DNA from: a virus
Lineage: Duplodnaviria; Heunggongvirae; Uroviricota; Caudoviricetes
Length of the DNA stretch: 8,261 bases
Strand: one strand, 5' to 3'
IMG/VR virus record: IMGVR_UViG_2681813321_000016
The stretch's first letter is position 1. The number at the start of each line of letters is the position of its first letter. Of this stretch, positions 1 to 8,261 are shown piece by piece. The position numbers and the translations under genes are program-made. The notes below the pieces were generated by a model that saw nothing but the letters and a program-made list of their open reading frames with translations, was not told the origin of the DNA and ran no database searches.

Positions 1-26
1 AATGTTAAAACCAAGGTTCAAGGTAC
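1..26. other. Candidate degenerate hix-like site at the left window edge
   Basis: AATGTTAAAACC-AA-GGTTCAAGGTAC: the central AAAACCAAGGTT is identical to the centre of Salmonella hixL as I remember it, but the outer arms are poorly conserved. At the window edge, so context is missing. Confidence 0.3.
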
Positions 27-114
27 TGTAGTAATGTTTTCCGCTTCAGGGAAAAAATAGCATCCAACCGCAGCACGTTCTTGCTTAAGACGTGCTGCGG
101 CATAATCCCAATGA

Positions 115-465
115 TTACTCCCTGACAGGGTTCGTAGGCCACTCAATATCAGGTGCAGTTGATGTATCAACACGGTTCAGCAACACCCGATACTTTTTCC
201 AGGCTTCCACCACCAGCACGACAAGATGCCGCATACAGTGAACCAGTCAGTCCAGTTTTCAGACAACCAGTGCGTCACCTTTTTGAAGGCGCTTTAAAGC
301 ACGTTTTAATCCAGGTCGGCCTGTCCTTGTTCCGCTTAATTTATCTTCAAATATTTGTTCATATCCTGCACAAACAAGAGCGTTTCGTTGCAGATCTGTA
401 TTCTGGTCATTTGTTGATACCCTTACATAGCCAATCAGCACGCTGAATCTCCCGTCCAAAAGCAC
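115..465 (-). pseudogene. pin: Serine DNA invertase (Gin/Pin/Cin/Hin family) pseudogene; intact N-terminal 68 codons (259..465) then in-frame stops and decayed remnant
   Basis: Minus-strand ORF 259..465 reads LIGYVRVSTNDQNTDLQRNALVCAGYEQIFEDKLSGTRTGRPGLKRALKRLQKGDALVV, nearly identical to the N-terminus of Gin/Pin-type invertases as I recall them, including the catalytic-serine VRVST motif. The expected W after VV is TGA; the continuing frame reads [39 protein letters not shown], still weakly alignable to the invertase core but with a second stop. Likely GTG start at 439-441 with GGGAGA 6-7 nt upstream. Symbol is family-level only. Confidence 0.75.
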
Positions 466-495
466 AAATCATGCCATACAGGCCAGAAACCGCCA

Positions 496-521
496 TTATC
501 TAAAACCTCGGTTTACGAGAA
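496..521. other. Crossover site 1 (gix/hix/pix-like 26-bp site) adjacent to the invertase pseudogene
   Basis: TTATCTAAAACC-TC-GGTTTACGAGAA: two imperfect 12-bp inverted half-sites around a 2-bp core, matching the architecture and much of the sequence of the Gin/Hin crossover sites as I recall them. It sits about 30 bp from the invertase start and is the inverted partner of site 3. Confidence 0.75.
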
Positions 522-668
522 CTCGGCACAAGCGGGGAGAAAATACCGTTACTCAGTACAGCGAATACCTGGACTAATCGACAAACATTCAGCGGTGGCC
601 TTTCTGGTGAACTATCCGGCAATGCTTCTACAGCTGCAAAATTAAAAACTGCCAGGAAAATAAGCAAT

Positions 669-1454
669 GTGGCTTTTGATGGTTCCTCCGATATCACATT
701 AAAAGCAAGTCATGTTGGTGCGTTTGCCTTAGGGAAAACAGGAAGCACCGTTGCGAATGATAAAGCAGTTGGATGGAACTGGAGTAGCGGAGCCTATAAC
801 GCAACTATTAGTGGTGCATCAACGTTAATTATTCATTTTTATATGGGAGAAGGAAGTTGTCCTGCAGCTCAGTTTCGGATTAATTATAAAAATGGCGGTG
901 TTTTTTATCGTTCAGCCCGTGATGGTTATGGTTTTGAAGCCGACTGGTCCGAATTTTACACCACCACCAGAAAACCTTCAGCAGGAGATGTTGGTGCACT
1001 GCCGTTATCTGGTGGTCAACTGAATGGTACACTGGGTATCGGAACATCCAGTGCTCTTGGCGGTAATTCGATTGTATTGGGTGATAATGACACGGGCTTT
1101 AAACAAAATGGCGATGGTAATCTGGATGTTTATGCTAATAACGTCCATGTTATGCGCTTTGTCTCCGGAAGCATTCAAAGTAATAAAACCATAAATATTA
1201 CAGGGCGTGTTAACCCCTCGGATTACGGTAACTTTGATTCCCGTTATGTGAAAGATGTTCGACTTGGTTCACAGCAATATTATGGAGTGAACAACTGGCA
1301 AACATGGTATTTCCGGTGCCCTTCAGGTCATGTATTGTCTGGTATTAATGTTCAGGATACAGGGTCTAACTCTGCCGATAATATAGCGGGCGTTTATTAC
1401 AGACCCGTTCAAAAGTATATAAATGGCACCTGGTATAATGTAGCGAGCGTTTAA
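669..1454 (+). CDS. Tail fiber variable C-terminal tip cassette SvA, silent mirror copy (frame open from 504, no own start or promoter)
   Basis: Translation is identical to the C-terminal 261 aa of the long minus-strand fiber ORF. The frame is open from just after a TAA at 501-503 inside site 1; the ORF track start at 669 is a GTG. Contains the fiber motif [22 protein letters not shown] and C-terminal [14 protein letters not shown]. Confidence 0.7.
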
Positions 1455-1455
1455 T

Positions 1456-1989
1456 ATGATGCACTTAAAGAACATAAAAGCGGGTAATGCTAAAACACTG
1501 GAACAGTATGAGTTAACAAAGAAACACGGAGTTATCTGGCTTTACTCTGAGGACGAAAAAAACTGGTATGAGGAAGTGAAAAACTTTCAGCCAGACACCA
1601 TAAAGATTGTTTACGATGAAAATAATATTATTGTTGCCATAACCAAAGATGCCTCCACACTTAACCCTGAAGGTTATAGCGTCGTTGAGATTCCTGATAT
1701 TACCGCCAACCGGCGTGCTGACGACTCAGGTAAATGGATGTTTAAAGATGGCGCAGTCATTAAACGTGTATATACCGAAGAAGAGTTGCGCCTACAGACG
1801 GAAAACCAGAAAAAAATATTATTACAGCAGGCCAGAGAAAAAACGCAGTTCTGGCAAACACAGCTTACTTTGGGGATTATCACTGATTCAGACAGACAGC
1901 AACTGATGAACTGGATGCGATACGTGCAACAGGTTGAGACAACTGATACCTCGGTTCTTCCTGTAACATTCCCGGAACCACCAGAATAA
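1456..1989 (+). CDS. tfa: Tail fiber assembly protein TfaA (mirror copy)
   Basis: 177-aa ORF starting 2 nt after the SvA stop (translational coupling); [30 protein letters not shown]... is typical of Tfa/U-type tail fiber assembly chaperones; identical to 5035..5568 on the minus strand. Symbol is family-level only. Confidence 0.8.
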
Positions 1990-1992
1990 GAA

Positions 1993-2010
1993 AAGGCCCG
2001 TACGGGCCTT
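1993..2010. terminator. Bidirectional intrinsic terminator between convergent tfa genes
   Basis: Perfect palindrome AAGGCCCGTACGGGCCTT (GC-rich stem GGCCC, loop GTAC) with an A-run upstream and T-rich tract downstream on both strands, placed between the stop codons of the convergent tfaA and tfaB. Confidence 0.6.
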
Positions 2011-2019
2011 AATTTGTTG

Positions 2020-2547
2020 TTATTCTGGTTTCTGTGGCCATTCAGGCTTTGCAGTATCCACACGGCTGACCATAACGCTGTAGCGTTCCCATGATTCCAG
2101 TCGTGTGCGTTCCTCATCAGTTGCCATATTCAGTCTGACAGCACGTTCCAGCGGTTGAATCACAGACTCCGCTTCGGAAAGCAAAGCGGCTTTTTGTAAC
2201 TCTGCCTGCTGTTGCAGTTCCTGTTTTGTATATTCCCGCTTTACTACTTTACCATCCAGAAACTTCCAGTTTCCCGAGATATCGGCGCGACGGTTGGCTG
2301 TTATATTCGGTAACTCAACAACACTTAACCCGTCAGGGTTAAGTGTTGATACGTCTTTCTCAATACAACGAATAATCCCCTTCTGGTCATAAGCTATTTT
2401 TAAAGTATCATCCTGAAAGTTTTTTAATTCGTCATACCAGTTTTTACCGTCTTCTGTATATAGCCAGATAACGCCAGCTTTTTTCGTAAGCTGATACTGC
2501 TCAATGGTTTTGGGGTTTCCGGCGGTAATATTTTTCAGATGTTGCAT
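2020..2547 (-). CDS. tfa: Tail fiber assembly protein TfaB (mirror copy)
   Basis: 175-aa [33 protein letters not shown]..., a paralogue of TfaA along its length; identical to 4477..5004 on the plus strand. Symbol is family-level only. Confidence 0.8.
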
Positions 2548-2562
2548 ATATTCTCCTGATGG

Positions 2563-3438
2563 CTATGCCTGTTCAACGTTATACCAGTTACCAGAAATGT
2601 ATTTTTGTAGTGGTCGTGACACCATCCAGTCATCTCCATCAACCTCACCAATAATTTGCAATCCTGTTGTCACATGACCATTACCTGGTTCGCAAAGTCC
2701 TCCGCGATATAATGTGTCAGAACGTCTGCCTCCCAGACGCACATTTCTGATAAAAGAACTATTCAGGTAATCATTTAAGTTTGAACCCCAGCACCCACCA
2801 AATATATTTCCATCGGTGTTATAACGGACGCCACCCGCAATAAGAGCACCCGGTGAAATAAAGGATTTATCGTTCGGGTTAAACTGCCATAAAGCATCAT
2901 TACCGCCATCGCCACGCATATGAATACATGGAACCGGAAATCCATACTGTTCTGTCAGTAAATACCCAAAGCTGACCGCGCCGGGATAGCCCTGTCCATT
3001 GCGAATGGACAAGCCCTTAACTATCGGCACGTAATGACCACCAGGAGTGGGATTCCAGGCAAACTGCGTCTGAACAAAAGGCGCGGTGGCATTATTCAAC
3101 TGGTCTGCAAATGCGCCACTTCCATCAGGAATTATTCCCTGATGAATATATGCAACCCGCTTATAAAAATCAGCAGATGCGGGTTGAAGCCCAAATGCCA
3201 GTTGTCCATTTGAATAGAATAAAAGGACACCGTCGCCGCCCTGTTTAATACCAGTGTCGTTATCTCCGAGAGTAATGGAATTACCGCCCAGTGCGTTATC
3301 TGTACCAAGCGCCAGCCCACCATCAATTTTGGCCCCGTGGCTGACAGATATAGCACCTGTTCTCAGATTTATAGCGAATGGCCTTAATGGGCCTATATCA
3401 CCGTTTTCGCCTTGTCCTTCAGCCGTCGGAACCTCGGT
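2563..3438 (-). CDS. Tail fiber variable tip cassette SvB, 5'-truncated silent mirror copy
   Basis: The ORF track gives 2563..3099 (TTG start), but the frame is open up to a TAA at 3439-3441. The encoded sequence is identical to the C-terminal part of the plus-strand ORF 3412..4461 yet lacks the first ~54 codons of that cassette, which lie in the unique 161-bp spacer. Confidence 0.6.
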   Translation of the reverse strand, partial: TEVPTAEGQGENGDIGPLRPFAINLRTGAISVSHGAKIDGGLALGTDNALGGNSITLGDNDTGIKQGGDGVLLFYSNGQLAFGLQPASADFYKRVAYIHQGIIPDGSGAFADQLNNATAPFVQTQFAWNPTPGGHYVPIVKGLSIRNGQGYPGAVSFGYLLTEQYGFPVPCIHMRGDGGNDALWQFNPNDKSFISPGALIAGGVRYNTDGNIFGGCWGSNLNDYLNSSFIRNVRLGGRRSDTLYRGGLCEPGNGHVTTGLQIIGEVDGDDWMVSRPLQKYISGNWYNVEQA

Positions 3439-4461
3439 TTACAGGAAACGGTAAACAAGGCTGGTAACGCCGTTCAGCGTTCCGGCGATAAAATGACCGG
3501 AGAACTGAAAATTGGCACGGTGAATGCGCTGCGAATTTTCAATGATGCCTTCGGTCTTATTTTCCGTCGTTCAGAAGATTTTCTTCATTTCATTCCGACG
3601 GCTGAAGGACAAGGCGAAAACGGTGATATAGGCCCATTAAGGCCATTCGCTATAAATCTGAGAACAGGTGCTATATCTGTCAGCCACGGGGCCAAAATTG
3701 ATGGTGGGCTGGCGCTTGGTACAGATAACGCACTGGGCGGTAATTCCATTACTCTCGGAGATAACGACACTGGTATTAAACAGGGCGGCGACGGTGTCCT
3801 TTTATTCTATTCAAATGGACAACTGGCATTTGGGCTTCAACCCGCATCTGCTGATTTTTATAAGCGGGTTGCATATATTCATCAGGGAATAATTCCTGAT
3901 GGAAGTGGCGCATTTGCAGACCAGTTGAATAATGCCACCGCGCCTTTTGTTCAGACGCAGTTTGCCTGGAATCCCACTCCTGGTGGTCATTACGTGCCGA
4001 TAGTTAAGGGCTTGTCCATTCGCAATGGACAGGGCTATCCCGGCGCGGTCAGCTTTGGGTATTTACTGACAGAACAGTATGGATTTCCGGTTCCATGTAT
4101 TCATATGCGTGGCGATGGCGGTAATGATGCTTTATGGCAGTTTAACCCGAACGATAAATCCTTTATTTCACCGGGTGCTCTTATTGCGGGTGGCGTCCGT
4201 TATAACACCGATGGAAATATATTTGGTGGGTGCTGGGGTTCAAACTTAAATGATTACCTGAATAGTTCTTTTATCAGAAATGTGCGTCTGGGAGGCAGAC
4301 GTTCTGACACATTATATCGCGGAGGACTTTGCGAACCAGGTAATGGTCATGTGACAACAGGATTGCAAATTATTGGTGAGGTTGATGGAGATGACTGGAT
4401 GGTGTCACGACCACTACAAAAATACATTTCTGGTAACTGGTATAACGTTGAACAGGCATAG
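3412..4461 (+). CDS. Tail fiber variable tip cassette SvB (complete cassette, currently in the OFF orientation)
   Basis: 349-aa ORF; the TTG at 3412 is probably not a real start, as the cassette proper begins at the site 2 core. Sequence after the site (QETVNKAGNAVQRSGD...) resembles the start of invertible fiber tips in e14/Mu/P1-type systems as I recall them. Contains ALGGNSITLGDNDTGIKQGGDG and C-terminal RPLQKYISGNWYNV. Confidence 0.75.
   Translation: MSFSRRNLGLQETVNKAGNAVQRSGDKMTGELKIGTVNALRIFNDAFGLIFRRSEDFLHFIPTAEGQGENGDIGPLRPFAINLRTGAISVSHGAKIDGGLALGTDNALGGNSITLGDNDTGIKQGGDGVLLFYSNGQLAFGLQPASADFYKRVAYIHQGIIPDGSGAFADQLNNATAPFVQTQFAWNPTPGGHYVPIVKGLSIRNGQGYPGAVSFGYLLTEQYGFPVPCIHMRGDGGNDALWQFNPNDKSFISPGALIAGGVRYNTDGNIFGGCWGSNLNDYLNSSFIRNVRLGGRRSDTLYRGGLCEPGNGHVTTGLQIIGEVDGDDWMVSRPLQKYISGNWYNVEQA
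3422..3447. other. Crossover site 2: hybrid site with conserved core and right half but degenerate left half
   Basis: GCCGTCGGAACC-TC-GGTTTACAGGAA. The right half and core match sites 1 and 3; the left half is instead the mirror image of SvB coding sequence (reverse complement of 3591-3602). Same orientation as site 1, inverted relative to site 3. In the SvB frame it encodes NLGLQE, paralleling YLGLRE at site 3. Confidence 0.65.
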
Positions 4462-4476
4462 CCATCAGGAGAATAT

Positions 4477-5004
4477 ATGCAACATCTGAAAAATATTACC
4501 GCCGGAAACCCCAAAACCATTGAGCAGTATCAGCTTACGAAAAAAGCTGGCGTTATCTGGCTATATACAGAAGACGGTAAAAACTGGTATGACGAATTAA
4601 AAAACTTTCAGGATGATACTTTAAAAATAGCTTATGACCAGAAGGGGATTATTCGTTGTATTGAGAAAGACGTATCAACACTTAACCCTGACGGGTTAAG
4701 TGTTGTTGAGTTACCGAATATAACAGCCAACCGTCGCGCCGATATCTCGGGAAACTGGAAGTTTCTGGATGGTAAAGTAGTAAAGCGGGAATATACAAAA
4801 CAGGAACTGCAACAGCAGGCAGAGTTACAAAAAGCCGCTTTGCTTTCCGAAGCGGAGTCTGTGATTCAACCGCTGGAACGTGCTGTCAGACTGAATATGG
4901 CAACTGATGAGGAACGCACACGACTGGAATCATGGGAACGCTACAGCGTTATGGTCAGCCGTGTGGATACTGCAAAGCCTGAATGGCCACAGAAACCAGA
5001 ATAA
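4477..5004 (+). CDS. tfa: Tail fiber assembly protein TfaB, cognate chaperone of SvB
   Basis: 175-aa ORF with AGGAGA Shine-Dalgarno 4 nt upstream of the ATG; identical to 2020..2547 on the minus strand. Symbol is family-level only. Confidence 0.85.
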
Positions 5005-5013
5005 CAACAAATT

Positions 5014-5031
5014 AAGGCCCGTACGGGCCTT
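5014..5031. terminator. Bidirectional intrinsic terminator (mirror copy of 1993-2010)
   Basis: Same palindrome AAGGCCCGTACGGGCCTT followed by TTTTCTTATTC on the plus strand; lies between convergent tfaB and tfaA. Confidence 0.6.
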
Positions 5032-5034
5032 TTC

Positions 5035-5568
5035 TTATTCTGGTGGTTCCGGGAATGTTACAGGAAGAACCGAGGTATCAGTTGTCTCAACCTGTTGCAC
5101 GTATCGCATCCAGTTCATCAGTTGCTGTCTGTCTGAATCAGTGATAATCCCCAAAGTAAGCTGTGTTTGCCAGAACTGCGTTTTTTCTCTGGCCTGCTGT
5201 AATAATATTTTTTTCTGGTTTTCCGTCTGTAGGCGCAACTCTTCTTCGGTATATACACGTTTAATGACTGCGCCATCTTTAAACATCCATTTACCTGAGT
5301 CGTCAGCACGCCGGTTGGCGGTAATATCAGGAATCTCAACGACGCTATAACCTTCAGGGTTAAGTGTGGAGGCATCTTTGGTTATGGCAACAATAATATT
5401 ATTTTCATCGTAAACAATCTTTATGGTGTCTGGCTGAAAGTTTTTCACTTCCTCATACCAGTTTTTTTCGTCCTCAGAGTAAAGCCAGATAACTCCGTGT
5501 TTCTTTGTTAACTCATACTGTTCCAGTGTTTTAGCATTACCCGCTTTTATGTTCTTTAAGTGCATCAT
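5035..5568 (-). CDS. tfa: Tail fiber assembly protein TfaA, expressed copy downstream of the fiber gene
   Basis: 177-aa ORF whose start lies 2 nt past the stop of the fiber gene on the minus strand (coupled); identical to 1456..1989. Symbol is family-level only. Confidence 0.85.
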
Positions 5569-5569
5569 A

Positions 5570-8261
5570 TTAAACGCTCGCTACATTATACCAGGTGCCA
5601 TTTATATACTTTTGAACGGGTCTGTAATAAACGCCCGCTATATTATCGGCAGAGTTAGACCCTGTATCCTGAACATTAATACCAGACAATACATGACCTG
5701 AAGGGCACCGGAAATACCATGTTTGCCAGTTGTTCACTCCATAATATTGCTGTGAACCAAGTCGAACATCTTTCACATAACGGGAATCAAAGTTACCGTA
5801 ATCCGAGGGGTTAACACGCCCTGTAATATTTATGGTTTTATTACTTTGAATGCTTCCGGAGACAAAGCGCATAACATGGACGTTATTAGCATAAACATCC
5901 AGATTACCATCGCCATTTTGTTTAAAGCCCGTGTCATTATCACCCAATACAATCGAATTACCGCCAAGAGCACTGGATGTTCCGATACCCAGTGTACCAT
6001 TCAGTTGACCACCAGATAACGGCAGTGCACCAACATCTCCTGCTGAAGGTTTTCTGGTGGTGGTGTAAAATTCGGACCAGTCGGCTTCAAAACCATAACC
6101 ATCACGGGCTGAACGATAAAAAACACCGCCATTTTTATAATTAATCCGAAACTGAGCTGCAGGACAACTTCCTTCTCCCATATAAAAATGAATAATTAAC
6201 GTTGATGCACCACTAATAGTTGCGTTATAGGCTCCGCTACTCCAGTTCCATCCAACTGCTTTATCATTCGCAACGGTGCTTCCTGTTTTCCCTAAGGCAA
6301 ACGCACCAACATGACTTGCTTTTAATGTGATATCGGAGGAACCATCAAAAGCCACATTGCTTATTTTCCTGGCAGTTTTTAATTTTGCAGCTGTAGAAGC
6401 ATTGCCGGATAGTTCACCAGAAAGGCCACCGCTGAATGTTTGTCGATTAGTCCAGGTATTCGCTGTACTGAGTAACGGTATTTTCTCCCCGCTTGTGCCG
6501 AGTTCTCGTAAACCGAGGTATTCGATAACGGCGGCAACGGTCGATTTCGCAAGAATATCCCGCCCAACTTTTGTCAGGGTTGCCAGACTGGCAACATCAT
6601 TCCCCGTAAAATACGGAAACCTGTCTGCCGCAGTAGCAAGCCCGGCCAGCGCCGTCAGGGTGGCATCTTTCGGTTGCTTACCCGCAAGCGCGTTAGTCAT
6701 GGTGGTCGCAAAATTCGGGTCGTTGCCCAACGCCGCAGCCAGCTCGTTCAGCGTATTCAGTGCGTCAGGCGACGAGTCCACGAGGGCAGCGATCGCAGCC
6801 ATAACATAAGCCGTGCTTGCGATTTGGGTATTATTCGTTCCCTGTCGCGCAGTTGGTGTTGTTGGCGTTCCGGTCAGTGCAGGACTATTTAAGGGCGCTT
6901 TCTTGTTCGTTTCACCCATTACCGCCTTAACCGCTTTTGGCGTTGCCGCCAGTGACTCGGAAGTGCTGTTGGTCGCACTGCTGAGCTGTACTATCCCCTT
7001 TTTCGTCGTGCTCGCATCCTCCAGCGCCACGGCGGATGCAATATCCTCTGCCCGTTTTGCTGCTGTCTCGGCGCGCGTTGCCGCGGATTCCGCCGTACTT
7101 TTGCTCTGAGCTGCCGCCGTCACACTACCAGCTGCCTCTGATGCTTTCATTGTTGCTGTCGTGGCACTACCTTTCGCTGCTGACGCTTGTCTGGTCGCCT
7201 CATCTTTTGAAGCAGACGCAGATGATGCCGATGACGCCGCTGAACTGGCTGACGATGCGGCTGCCGCCTTAGAGGAAGCAGCATTGTCTGCTGAAGTCTT
7301 TGCATTTGTTTCAGAGGTTTTTGCTGCAGAAGCAGACCTCGCTGCTGCAGTGGCTTGCTCAGTGGCTTTGCCAGCCTTCGTTGTGGCTGTTGAAGCGGAT
7401 GATGCGGCGCTTTCTGCCGATTTTCCGGCGGCGGTGGCACTGGCTGAGGCCTGCCCGGCACTTGTTGACGCGGCACTGGCAGACGACGCAGCCGCTGTTT
7501 TTGAGCCTGCCGCAGCCGAGGCGCTCTGTCCCGCTGCCGTTTCAGAAGACCTGGCGTTTGTCTCAGACGTCTTTGCCGCCTTCGCGGAATTGCCTGCCGC
7601 CGTTGCCGAGGAAGCGGCACTACTGGCGCTTGATGATGCGTTCGTTTCTGATGATTTCGCTGCCTCTTTTGAGGCCGCCGCATCCCGGGCTGAGGTGGCT
7701 GCTTCTGACGCCTTCGTGGTCGCGGCGGATGCAGAAGTGGCTGCTGATTGTTGTGACGCTGCCGCATTCGTTTCTGACGTTTTCGCCGCAGCGGCACTGG
7801 TAGCTGCCGCGCTTTTTGAGGACTCTGCAGCAGCAGCACTTTTCGATGCTTCACTGGCCTTTGTTGATGCCGTTCCTGCGCTGGAAGACGCTGACTGAGC
7901 CGACGACGCGGCCTGTCCGGCTGACGTGCTGGCGGCACGTGCTGAGGCTGCAGCATCGGTTGCATGAGTTACCGCCTCGCTGGCTGATGCACTGGCATCG
8001 CTGGCTGATTTTTTCGCGGCTGCCGTATTCTGTGCAACCGCGGAGGCGTTACGTGACACTTCTTCCACCATCTGCTCAAAGCGGCGCAGTGCCTCCGGTC
8101 GGACATCATCCTCCGTCATGGCACCGAGAAAATCATTCAGCGTACCTGGTCTGGAACCTTCATAGACGGTAATGGTCCCGGCATGTGAAGGCGGAAAACC
8201 TTCAACCAGCAGGGTGACGCTGTACTGACCATGCTCAACATCCATGCTGTAACGTCCGGCT
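5570..8261 (-). CDS. stf: Side tail fiber protein (constant shaft fused to tip SvA), 5'-partial; gene start lies beyond the right edge
   Basis: Minus-strand frame open from the window edge to a stop at 5570 (at least 891 aa). The N-terminal part ([47 protein letters not shown]...) and the Ala/Ser/Thr-rich repeats resemble lambda Stf/StfR-type fibers as I recall them; the [26 protein letters not shown] motif is typical. The constant part ends ...AAVIEYLGL at site 3 and continues into SvA. Symbol is family-level only. Confidence 0.9.
6503..6528. other. Crossover site 3 inside the fiber gene at the constant/variable junction
   Basis: TTCTCGTAAACC-GA-GGTATTCGATAA on the plus strand; its reverse complement TTATCGAATACC-TC-GGTTTACGAGAA differs from site 1 at two positions. 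Encodes IEYLGLRE in the fiber frame, the position where crossover sites sit in Mu G-segment/e14 P-segment-type systems. Confidence 0.8.
7050..8020. repeat. Low-complexity Ala/Ser/Thr-rich repeat region of the fiber shaft
   Basis: The fiber translation here is dominated by A/S/T with recurring KTSETNA, SASAA and ASEAA units. The compositional bias creates long spurious ORFs in other frames (7161..7898 +, 7147..7965 -, 7300..7803 +). Boundaries are approximate. Confidence 0.6.

Follow-up and report, generated by a model that had tools for sequence, protein, structure and literature searches.

The window analysed here is the whole 8,261-nucleotide stretch of the IMG/VR virus record IMGVR_UViG_2681813321_000016 (Caudoviricetes). 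It carries an invertible tail-fibre segment, and the invertase gene beside it begins like those of the Gin/Pin family and then changes abruptly in character. The locus raises two questions: what produced so sharp a change within one apparent gene, and can a switch with such a gene at its side still be flipped? A sequence-only reading had treated the region as a single invertase pseudogene with sharply non-uniform decay, and proposed that invertases from other prophages act on the switch in trans. We compared the window with phage, prophage and complete E. coli sequences. The window is an ST131-type E. coli lambdoid prophage inserted in ompW, beside the trp operon, and its positions 1-700 match EC958 at 99.6% and strain WS3294A at 100% identity. 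The best explanation, and in our judgement a very probable one, is a truncated gin/pinE-mosaic stub fused to the end of a tfa gene, together with an orphan switch that is flipped in trans by a co-resident invertase.

The invertase remnant extends over 207-441 and not over 115-465 as had been suggested. The minus-strand open reading frame opens at GTG 465, which is merely the first start codon after the upstream stop, and it ends at the stop at 259-261. The gene's actual start codon, shared with Mu gin, is the GTG at 441, and the alignment of Mu with the window is free of gaps from gixR through gin. From the crossover site through the leader and codons 1-63 (521-251) the window shares 94-95% identity with Mu gin and its relatives, and this homology ends at 251. 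Over codons 1-61 (441-259) the match to Mu gin is 176/183 nt (96%), and the seven differences comprise three synonymous changes, three non-synonymous changes and one TGG>TGA. The first ~60 codons are thus near-identical to Gin, as the sequence-only reading had it, differing at three amino acids and one stop.

The stub contains only part of a serine recombinase. Pfam Resolvase (PF00239) matched the first 68 residues (E=4.6e-15) over profile positions 2-69 of 145 only. The YVRVST N-terminal motif with the catalytic serine is present, and VLIGYVRVSTNDQ is identical to Gin. The complete Resolvase catalytic domain, including the E-helix, is absent, and the coding sequence stops at codon 78, at the tfa junction. 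The C-terminal helix-turn-helix DNA-binding domain is likewise absent; downstream of 207 lie the 3' end of tfa and then a methyltransferase gene. There is also no uninterrupted invertase reading frame, given two TGA stops. The stub is unable to encode a recombinase. A GATAAT hexamer, earlier proposed as the -10 element of an autoregulated promoter, is present at 495-500, but a promoter scan of 1-700 found no -35/-10 pair there and called no promoter, nor anything sigma-70-like in the leader (442-495).

Comparison of the remaining part of the apparent gene with other invertases and with tail-fibre assembly genes accounts for most of the change in character. The 17 codons 62-78 (258-207) are true invertase sequence of the pinE-like allele class. 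Gene nucleotides 210-235 match K-12 pinE at 25/26 positions, versus 13/26 for gin, and nucleotides 184-209 have their best match (20/26) in a pinE-like remnant of strain S1-KEN-03-A, the closest available sequence to 207-258 (45/52 nt). The string M-HL--LV-E, earlier taken for decayed residues, corresponds to MRHLVVLV of PinE and matches it exactly. At the junction, which bears a TGG microhomology, the stub continues in frame into the last 30 codons of a 194-aa Tfa protein, and the full-length Tfa domain is absent. Caudo_TAP matched this fragment with E=8e-13 at profile positions 104-130 of 131. From ~212 down to 60, 152/153 nt are identical to the intact tfa end and downstream DNA of E. coli O55:H7 RM12579, where the gene order is stf-tfa-methyltransferase without an invertase. 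Other E. coli also carry this intact, invertase-free arrangement, and the methyltransferase gene is the usual neighbour of the matching tfa gene in other prophages.

PGAP treats this region as two fragments, with the tfa fragment distinct from the invertase. The region 115-258, previously described as decayed but still alignable invertase, is a composite of pinE-like sequence (258-207) and the tfa 3' end (~212-115). As judged from these alignments, the sharp change in divergence is a gene-fusion junction at ~207-212 plus an older gin/pinE mosaic boundary, and not differential decay. The decay appeared to run at two speeds because three different pieces of DNA were compared with a single reference, and the junction could be read straight through because the fusion of stub and tfa is in frame. 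PGAP additionally places a 45-aa hypothetical protein (WP_001309429.1) at 5-142 on the minus strand, overlapping the methyltransferase 3' end and the tfa fragment; this is probably not a real gene.

Table 1 Coordinates of the features of the stub, the fusion and the tail-fibre switch within the window.
Feature	Position	Strand	Basis or remark
Class I SAM-dependent methyltransferase gene, 3' end	1..60	+	Annotation of EC958 and O55:H7; sequence matches
Lambdoid tail-fibre assembly gene (tfa) 3' fragment, last 30 codons and stop (115-117)	115..212	-	Pfam Caudo_TAP; nucleotide identity; PGAP
Fusion junction, invertase stub to tfa 3' end	207..212		pinE identity stops at 207; tfa identity begins at 212
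Invertase stub, codons 1-78	207..441	-	Pfam Resolvase; alignments to gin/pinE; 441-259 gin-like, 258-207 pinE-like
Second nonsense codon, TGA for Arg	247..249	-	Fixed in all family members
First nonsense codon, TGA for Trp TGG	259..261	-	Polymorphic in the family: 14 TGA, 19 TGG
Segment homologous to the 72-bp recombinational enhancer of P1 cin (nt 19-90 of the coding sequence)	352..423		P1 record annotation
Distal Fis-like 15-mer GTGCAGGATATGAAC (minus)	357..371		Fits pattern GNNYRNNWNNYRNNC; homologous position in gin, cin, pinE
Proximal Fis-like 15-mer GTATCAACAAATGAC (minus)	406..420		G-N13-C; conserved in gin, Phi1, pinE
Leader, crossover site to invertase start	442..495	-	Homologous to region upstream of Mu gin
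Invertase-proximal 26-bp gix-like crossover site, TTATCTAAAACC TC GGTTTACGAGAA	496..521		Sequence; central dinucleotide 508-509
Invertible DNA, cassettes Sv + chaperone gene U and S'v + U'	510..6515		Present twice in the window
Hybrid site at duplication centre	3422..3447		Inner half and core (AACC TC GGTTTACAGGAA) intact; outer half is S'v-internal sequence
Tail-fibre ORF, constant part Sc fused to variable Sv	5570..8245	-	891 aa from ATG inside the window
Second crossover site, TTCTCGTAAACC GA GGTATTCGATAA	6504..6529		Inside tail-fibre gene, at constant/variable boundary

The parent invertase would itself have been a mosaic, with gin-like sequence through roughly codon 60 and pinE-like sequence beyond the conserved GD(T/A)LVVWKLD block. 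No intact gin/pinE-mosaic parent was found: a degenerate 58-nt pattern across the stop-containing patch matched 33 IMG/VR contigs, all with the fusion junction, and E. coli genomes, among the matches listed, held only gin-type sequences (ending at 251) or pinE-type sequences (72-75% identity). For this reason we only infer the order of events, with the mosaic forming before the truncation. The two nonsense codons reported earlier were confirmed, with corrected coordinates (Table 1), and a single C>T change separates that at 247-249 from the CGA of the closest pinE-like copy, in S1-KEN-03-A.

A 26-nt patch at 233-258, with both stops, stands apart in having at least six differences from every available invertase reference, and its flanks are 96% identical to gin and 96% identical to pinE, respectively. 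It could derive from a third parental allele at the boundary of the mosaic, or mutations could have clustered locally. This clustering of divergence counts against the explanation of a fused mosaic stub, and is not fully explained by fusion plus mosaic.

The stub-tfa junction is widespread. It occurs in 449 of 5426 complete E. coli genomes (~8%) and, in identical form, in 33 IMG/VR contigs; strain TW10598 has it elsewhere in the chromosome, near trkG. The same boundaries and the second stop are common to all 33 IMG/VR family members and TW10598, so that the stub structure is old and has been inherited as a unit. One contig, IMGVR_UViG_651053022_000007, keeps the junction and has unrelated sequence upstream of about window position 395, in place of the region homologous to 395-521; the proximal Fis-like site and the crossover site are lost, and this contig is a further-decayed version of the module.

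We examined the stub for the cis-acting enhancer that the sequence-only reading had sought. The P1 GenBank record annotates an 'enhancer of Cin-mediated C-segment inversion' at 31678-31749 and has the cin coding sequence start at 31660. The homologous segment of the stub is 70/72 identical to Mu gin, and likewise to the invertase gene of EC958 prophage Phi1. Two Fis-like 15-mers, both of the form G-N13-C, lie within it, 49 bp apart from centre to centre, in keeping with the predicted pair about 48 bp apart. Between the centre of the proximal one and the crossover point there are ~95 bp, a spacing consistent with the ~100 bp reported for Hin (PMC3798978). The distal one has a single ST131-type G>A change at its centre, position 362. 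However, a loose Fis consensus matched the window 19 times versus 15.2 expected, with no enrichment over chance, and hence only the homology to the annotated enhancer carries weight. The cis element is present by homology, and the two Fis sites within it are putative. Fis would bind at these 15-mers, and inversion would require the stub's enhancer.

The sequence-only reading proposed that 115-465 is one pseudogene whose 5' part has been kept by purifying selection on a Fis-dependent enhancer while the rest decayed. In its favour, the enhancer-homologous segment falls within the well-conserved part and is so close to Mu gin, and the switch is still used. However, the supposedly decayed part below ~212 is the tfa end, identical to an intact copy at all but one position and matched by Caudo_TAP, and conservation reaches far past the enhancer, across the whole of 259-521. 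The ST131-specific changes in the stub's first 90 nt number two, and both fall inside the enhancer segment. Diversity among 33 family members (one recombinant and one truncated contig excluded) was also uniform: π per site was 0.0146 at 424-507, 0.0161 in the enhancer segment (352-423), 0.0196 at 262-351 and 0.0166 at 207-261. Segregating sites occupied 4/72 positions in the enhancer versus 21/229 elsewhere (Fisher p=0.46, an underpowered comparison with 33 family members). There was no sign in these 33 members, a weak test, of enhancer-specific conservation or of faster 3' decay. The decay pattern needs no selection to explain it, and we give selection on the enhancer very little chance of having produced the contrast.

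Refreshing of the 5' part of an old pseudogene by recent gene conversion from an intact invertase in the same genome is about equally improbable. A related intact gene does exist in ST131 genomes, and the parent allele is visibly mosaic. However, the 5' part matches the co-resident Phi1 gene at 173/183 positions versus 176/183 for Mu gin, and it is therefore not a recent copy of the Phi1 gene. The boundaries and the fixed stop shared by all 33 IMG/VR members and TW10598 also argue against a recent patch. A divergent 5' part joined to the same 3' part and junction was found at one locus only, IMGVR_UViG_651053022_000007, where the 5' part is replaced by unrelated sequence. A different role for selection would be that the stub is kept as a 'cis-only' module, which has shed its own recombinase and retained the crossover site and enhancer in order to use the invertases of co-resident P2/Mu-like prophages. 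We regard this as unlikely, although less so than either of the two preceding proposals; if true, the first ~90 nt of the gene would have been kept for their adaptive value and not by accident.

The two 26-bp crossover sites of the switch are in inverted orientation with the same central dinucleotide (TC/GA). The invertase-proximal site is identical to 'Phi4_3prime' in Table 3 of Forde 2014 (PMC4134206), the second corresponds to the Phi4_5prime outer half-site of the same study, and the two Phi4 sites were described there as lying within a 36-bp imperfect repeat. Flipping would alternate two in-frame tail-fibre C-termini: in the flipped state, Sc is fused in frame to S'v (918 aa), and both orientations are open. 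Two Caudo_TAP chaperone genes are present, so each tail-fibre C-terminus has its own. A functional invertase adjoining the segment is absent, the only candidate being the 78-codon stub. The crossover site, the enhancer-homologous segment in the stub and the second site would together constitute an orphan switch.

Two further features of the tail-fibre region were observed. An 18-nt perfect palindrome, AAGGCCCGTACGGGCCTT, occurs at 1993-2010 and 5014-5031, between two convergent tail-fibre assembly genes, and resembles a terminator hairpin acting in both directions. The constant part of the minus-strand tail-fibre ORF contains, at 6900-8000, a long, internally repetitive stretch rich in Ala, Ser and Thr (repeat families D2 and D3), which also gives long spurious ORFs in its other frames and on the other strand.

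That an orphan switch at this exact locus is flipped in trans was already published in 2014. Forde 2014 (PMC4134206) reported that prophage Phi4 of EC958 has an invertible segment of 3106 bp, bearing these two sites, and an invertase that is 'severely truncated'; in PacBio data from one EC958 culture the Phi4 contigs assembled in both orientations. The invertase of Phi1, with near-identical sites, was proposed as the trans-acting enzyme, and at the Phi1 locus about half of the reads from one EC958 culture were inverted (Forde 2014, PMC4134206). Among complete genomes, we found the stub next to Sv (state A) in 375 and next to S'v (state B) in 151, where a call required the junction probe to be covered over at least 80%; the identity is 99% or higher for many records of either set. 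EC958 is in state A; JJ1886 and JJ1887 are in state B.

The search for an intact Gin/Pin-family invertase elsewhere, suggested by the sequence-only reading, found one: EC958 contains an intact 199-aa gin-like invertase (EC958_RS04620) in the P2-like prophage Phi1, and ST131 genomes in either state carry this gene at 100% identity. With both orientations observed and an intact Phi1-type gene at hand, the proposal of flipping in trans held up. The Phi1 enzyme would be the one acting, and we assume from near-identical ST131 genomes that the window's own genome has an intact invertase.

Inversion without any invertase, by RecA-dependent homologous recombination between the inverted repeats, has next to no probability in our assessment. 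Such repeats are present and there is no local invertase, which would suit this route. However, the two sites have only a 12-bp core, ACCTCGGTTTAC, in common within the 36-bp imperfect repeat. An identity of 12 bp is too short for efficient RecA exchange. The exchange point also coincides with a canonical 26-bp invertase site, and both the inversion of about half of the reads at Phi1 and the alternative-orientation contigs of Phi4 (Forde 2014, PMC4134206) speak against RecA. A co-resident invertase, with Phi1 as the source in ST131, would remain the agent that flips the Phi4 switch in trans.

The window differs from the known locus in a 2.9-kb inverted duplication of the invertible cassette. 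Its near-perfect to identical arms lie at ~510-3431 and 3593-6514 around a centre of 161 nt (3432-3592). Read from the left, the structure is that of state A as far as 3431, followed by the state B sequence that runs onward from the crossover site. The two breakpoints fall in the crossover site and within S'v, and the join (...GTCGGAA followed by CCTCGG...) is 2-4 nt from the central dinucleotide. When the whole window was used as query, no complete E. coli genome in RefSeq had this structure. Scans for the junction string in IMG/VR and in the species-representative genomes of GTDB gave no hit, and the ORF at the centre had no exact match at the protein level. Forde 2014 (PMC4134206) warned that merging of alternative-orientation contigs creates artefactual duplications of this kind. 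The duplication is probably such an assembly artefact. A canonical invertase product at a quasi-site was considered for the palindrome junction and ruled out, the breakpoint being 2-4 nt off the central dinucleotide.

The duplication would alternatively be a real chromosomal rearrangement, for example from an unequal exchange between sister chromatids that involved the crossover site, which would make the switch three-sited. The position of the breakpoint inside the crossover site, so near the central dinucleotide, and the identity of the arms are what such an exchange would have going for it. The breakpoint, however, does not fall where a serine invertase makes its staggered cut, and the absence of the structure from complete RefSeq E. 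coli, and of the junction string from IMG/VR and the GTDB representatives, also argues against it, as does the published warning of exactly this artefact (Forde 2014, PMC4134206). A further point is that the RefSeq record of WS3294A, 100% identical to the window, has untrimmed duplicated ends with both orientations. Together these leave a real rearrangement only a slim chance, and a merge of alternative-orientation contigs is preferred.

In the WS3294A record (NZ_CP035819.1, a RefSeq 'complete' chromosome) the locus lies at both record ends, 11057-16389 and 4995393-4996164. There is one copy per orientation, and each is 100% identical to the window. The ends of this circular assembly seem to have been left untrimmed because the inversion concealed their overlap.

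We propose the following history for the locus. An invertible cassette, consisting of Sv-U and U'-S'v with two crossover sites and an adjoining invertase gene, would have been joined to a lambdoid stf-tfa-methyltransferase module. This joining would have cut the invertase gene at codon 78, with illegitimate, microhomology-level recombination attaching the stub, its frame preserved, to the final 30 codons of the resident tfa. Two nonsense mutations and a few substitutions would have accumulated after the truncation. The general implication, that a phase-variable host-range switch can persist after losing its own recombinase by using that of another prophage, was already drawn for this locus in 2014. 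Our contribution is descriptive, comprising the three-part chimera, the enhancer-homologous segment inside the stub and the finding of no enhancer-specific constraint in current data. Borrowed-recombinase switches also affect the annotation and assembly of invertible regions in long-read E. coli genomes, and we flag here a probable palindromic assembly artefact in the source sequence and the untrimmed duplicated ends of one RefSeq record.

We compared the locus with known systems. EC958 Phi4 (Forde 2014, PMC4134206) is the same locus at 99.6% identity, with the same sites, a truncated invertase and inversion attributed to a trans-acting enzyme, but it lacks the palindromic duplicated segment of the window. 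New relative to that study are the gin/pinE mosaic, the in-frame tfa fusion and the retained enhancer-homologous segment. The Mu G segment with gin and the P1 C segment with cin share the architecture of constant tail-fibre part, site, Sv-U and U'-S'v, site, and invertase, with the enhancer in the first 90 nt of the invertase gene, where the window has the enhancer-homologous segment. From the site through codon 61 the window is 94-96% identical to Mu. Unlike in Mu and P1, the invertase gene is cut at codon 78 and has two stops, the host element is a lambdoid prophage, and the downstream neighbours are the tfa fragment and the methyltransferase gene instead of com/mom.

Strain S1-KEN-03-A (locus positions 2431-2894) presents a reciprocal remnant. 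As in the window, a lambdoid stf-tfa module stands beside an invertase fragment, but there tfa is intact and is followed by a 5'-truncated, frameshifted pinE-like invertase that lacks codons 1 to ~26 and hence the enhancer segment. No crossover site or second tail-fibre cassette adjoins this remnant in the PGAP annotation and alignment, and the arrangement, judged on those two sources, is probably fixed and non-invertible. Similar reciprocal remnants, with intact stf-tfa followed by a frameshifted pinE-like invertase lacking its first ~26 codons, are common in other E. coli.

Action of the invertase of one prophage on a segment in another element has precedents. PinQ of Qin inverts the e14 P segment (PMC12529663), and the Fin invertase of Fels-2 acts on the Salmonella H segment, according to Kutsukake 2006 as cited in PMC4272514. 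Those targets keep their own invertases, pinE and hin, whereas the local gene is dead here, and the Phi4-type switch therefore depends entirely on supply in trans.
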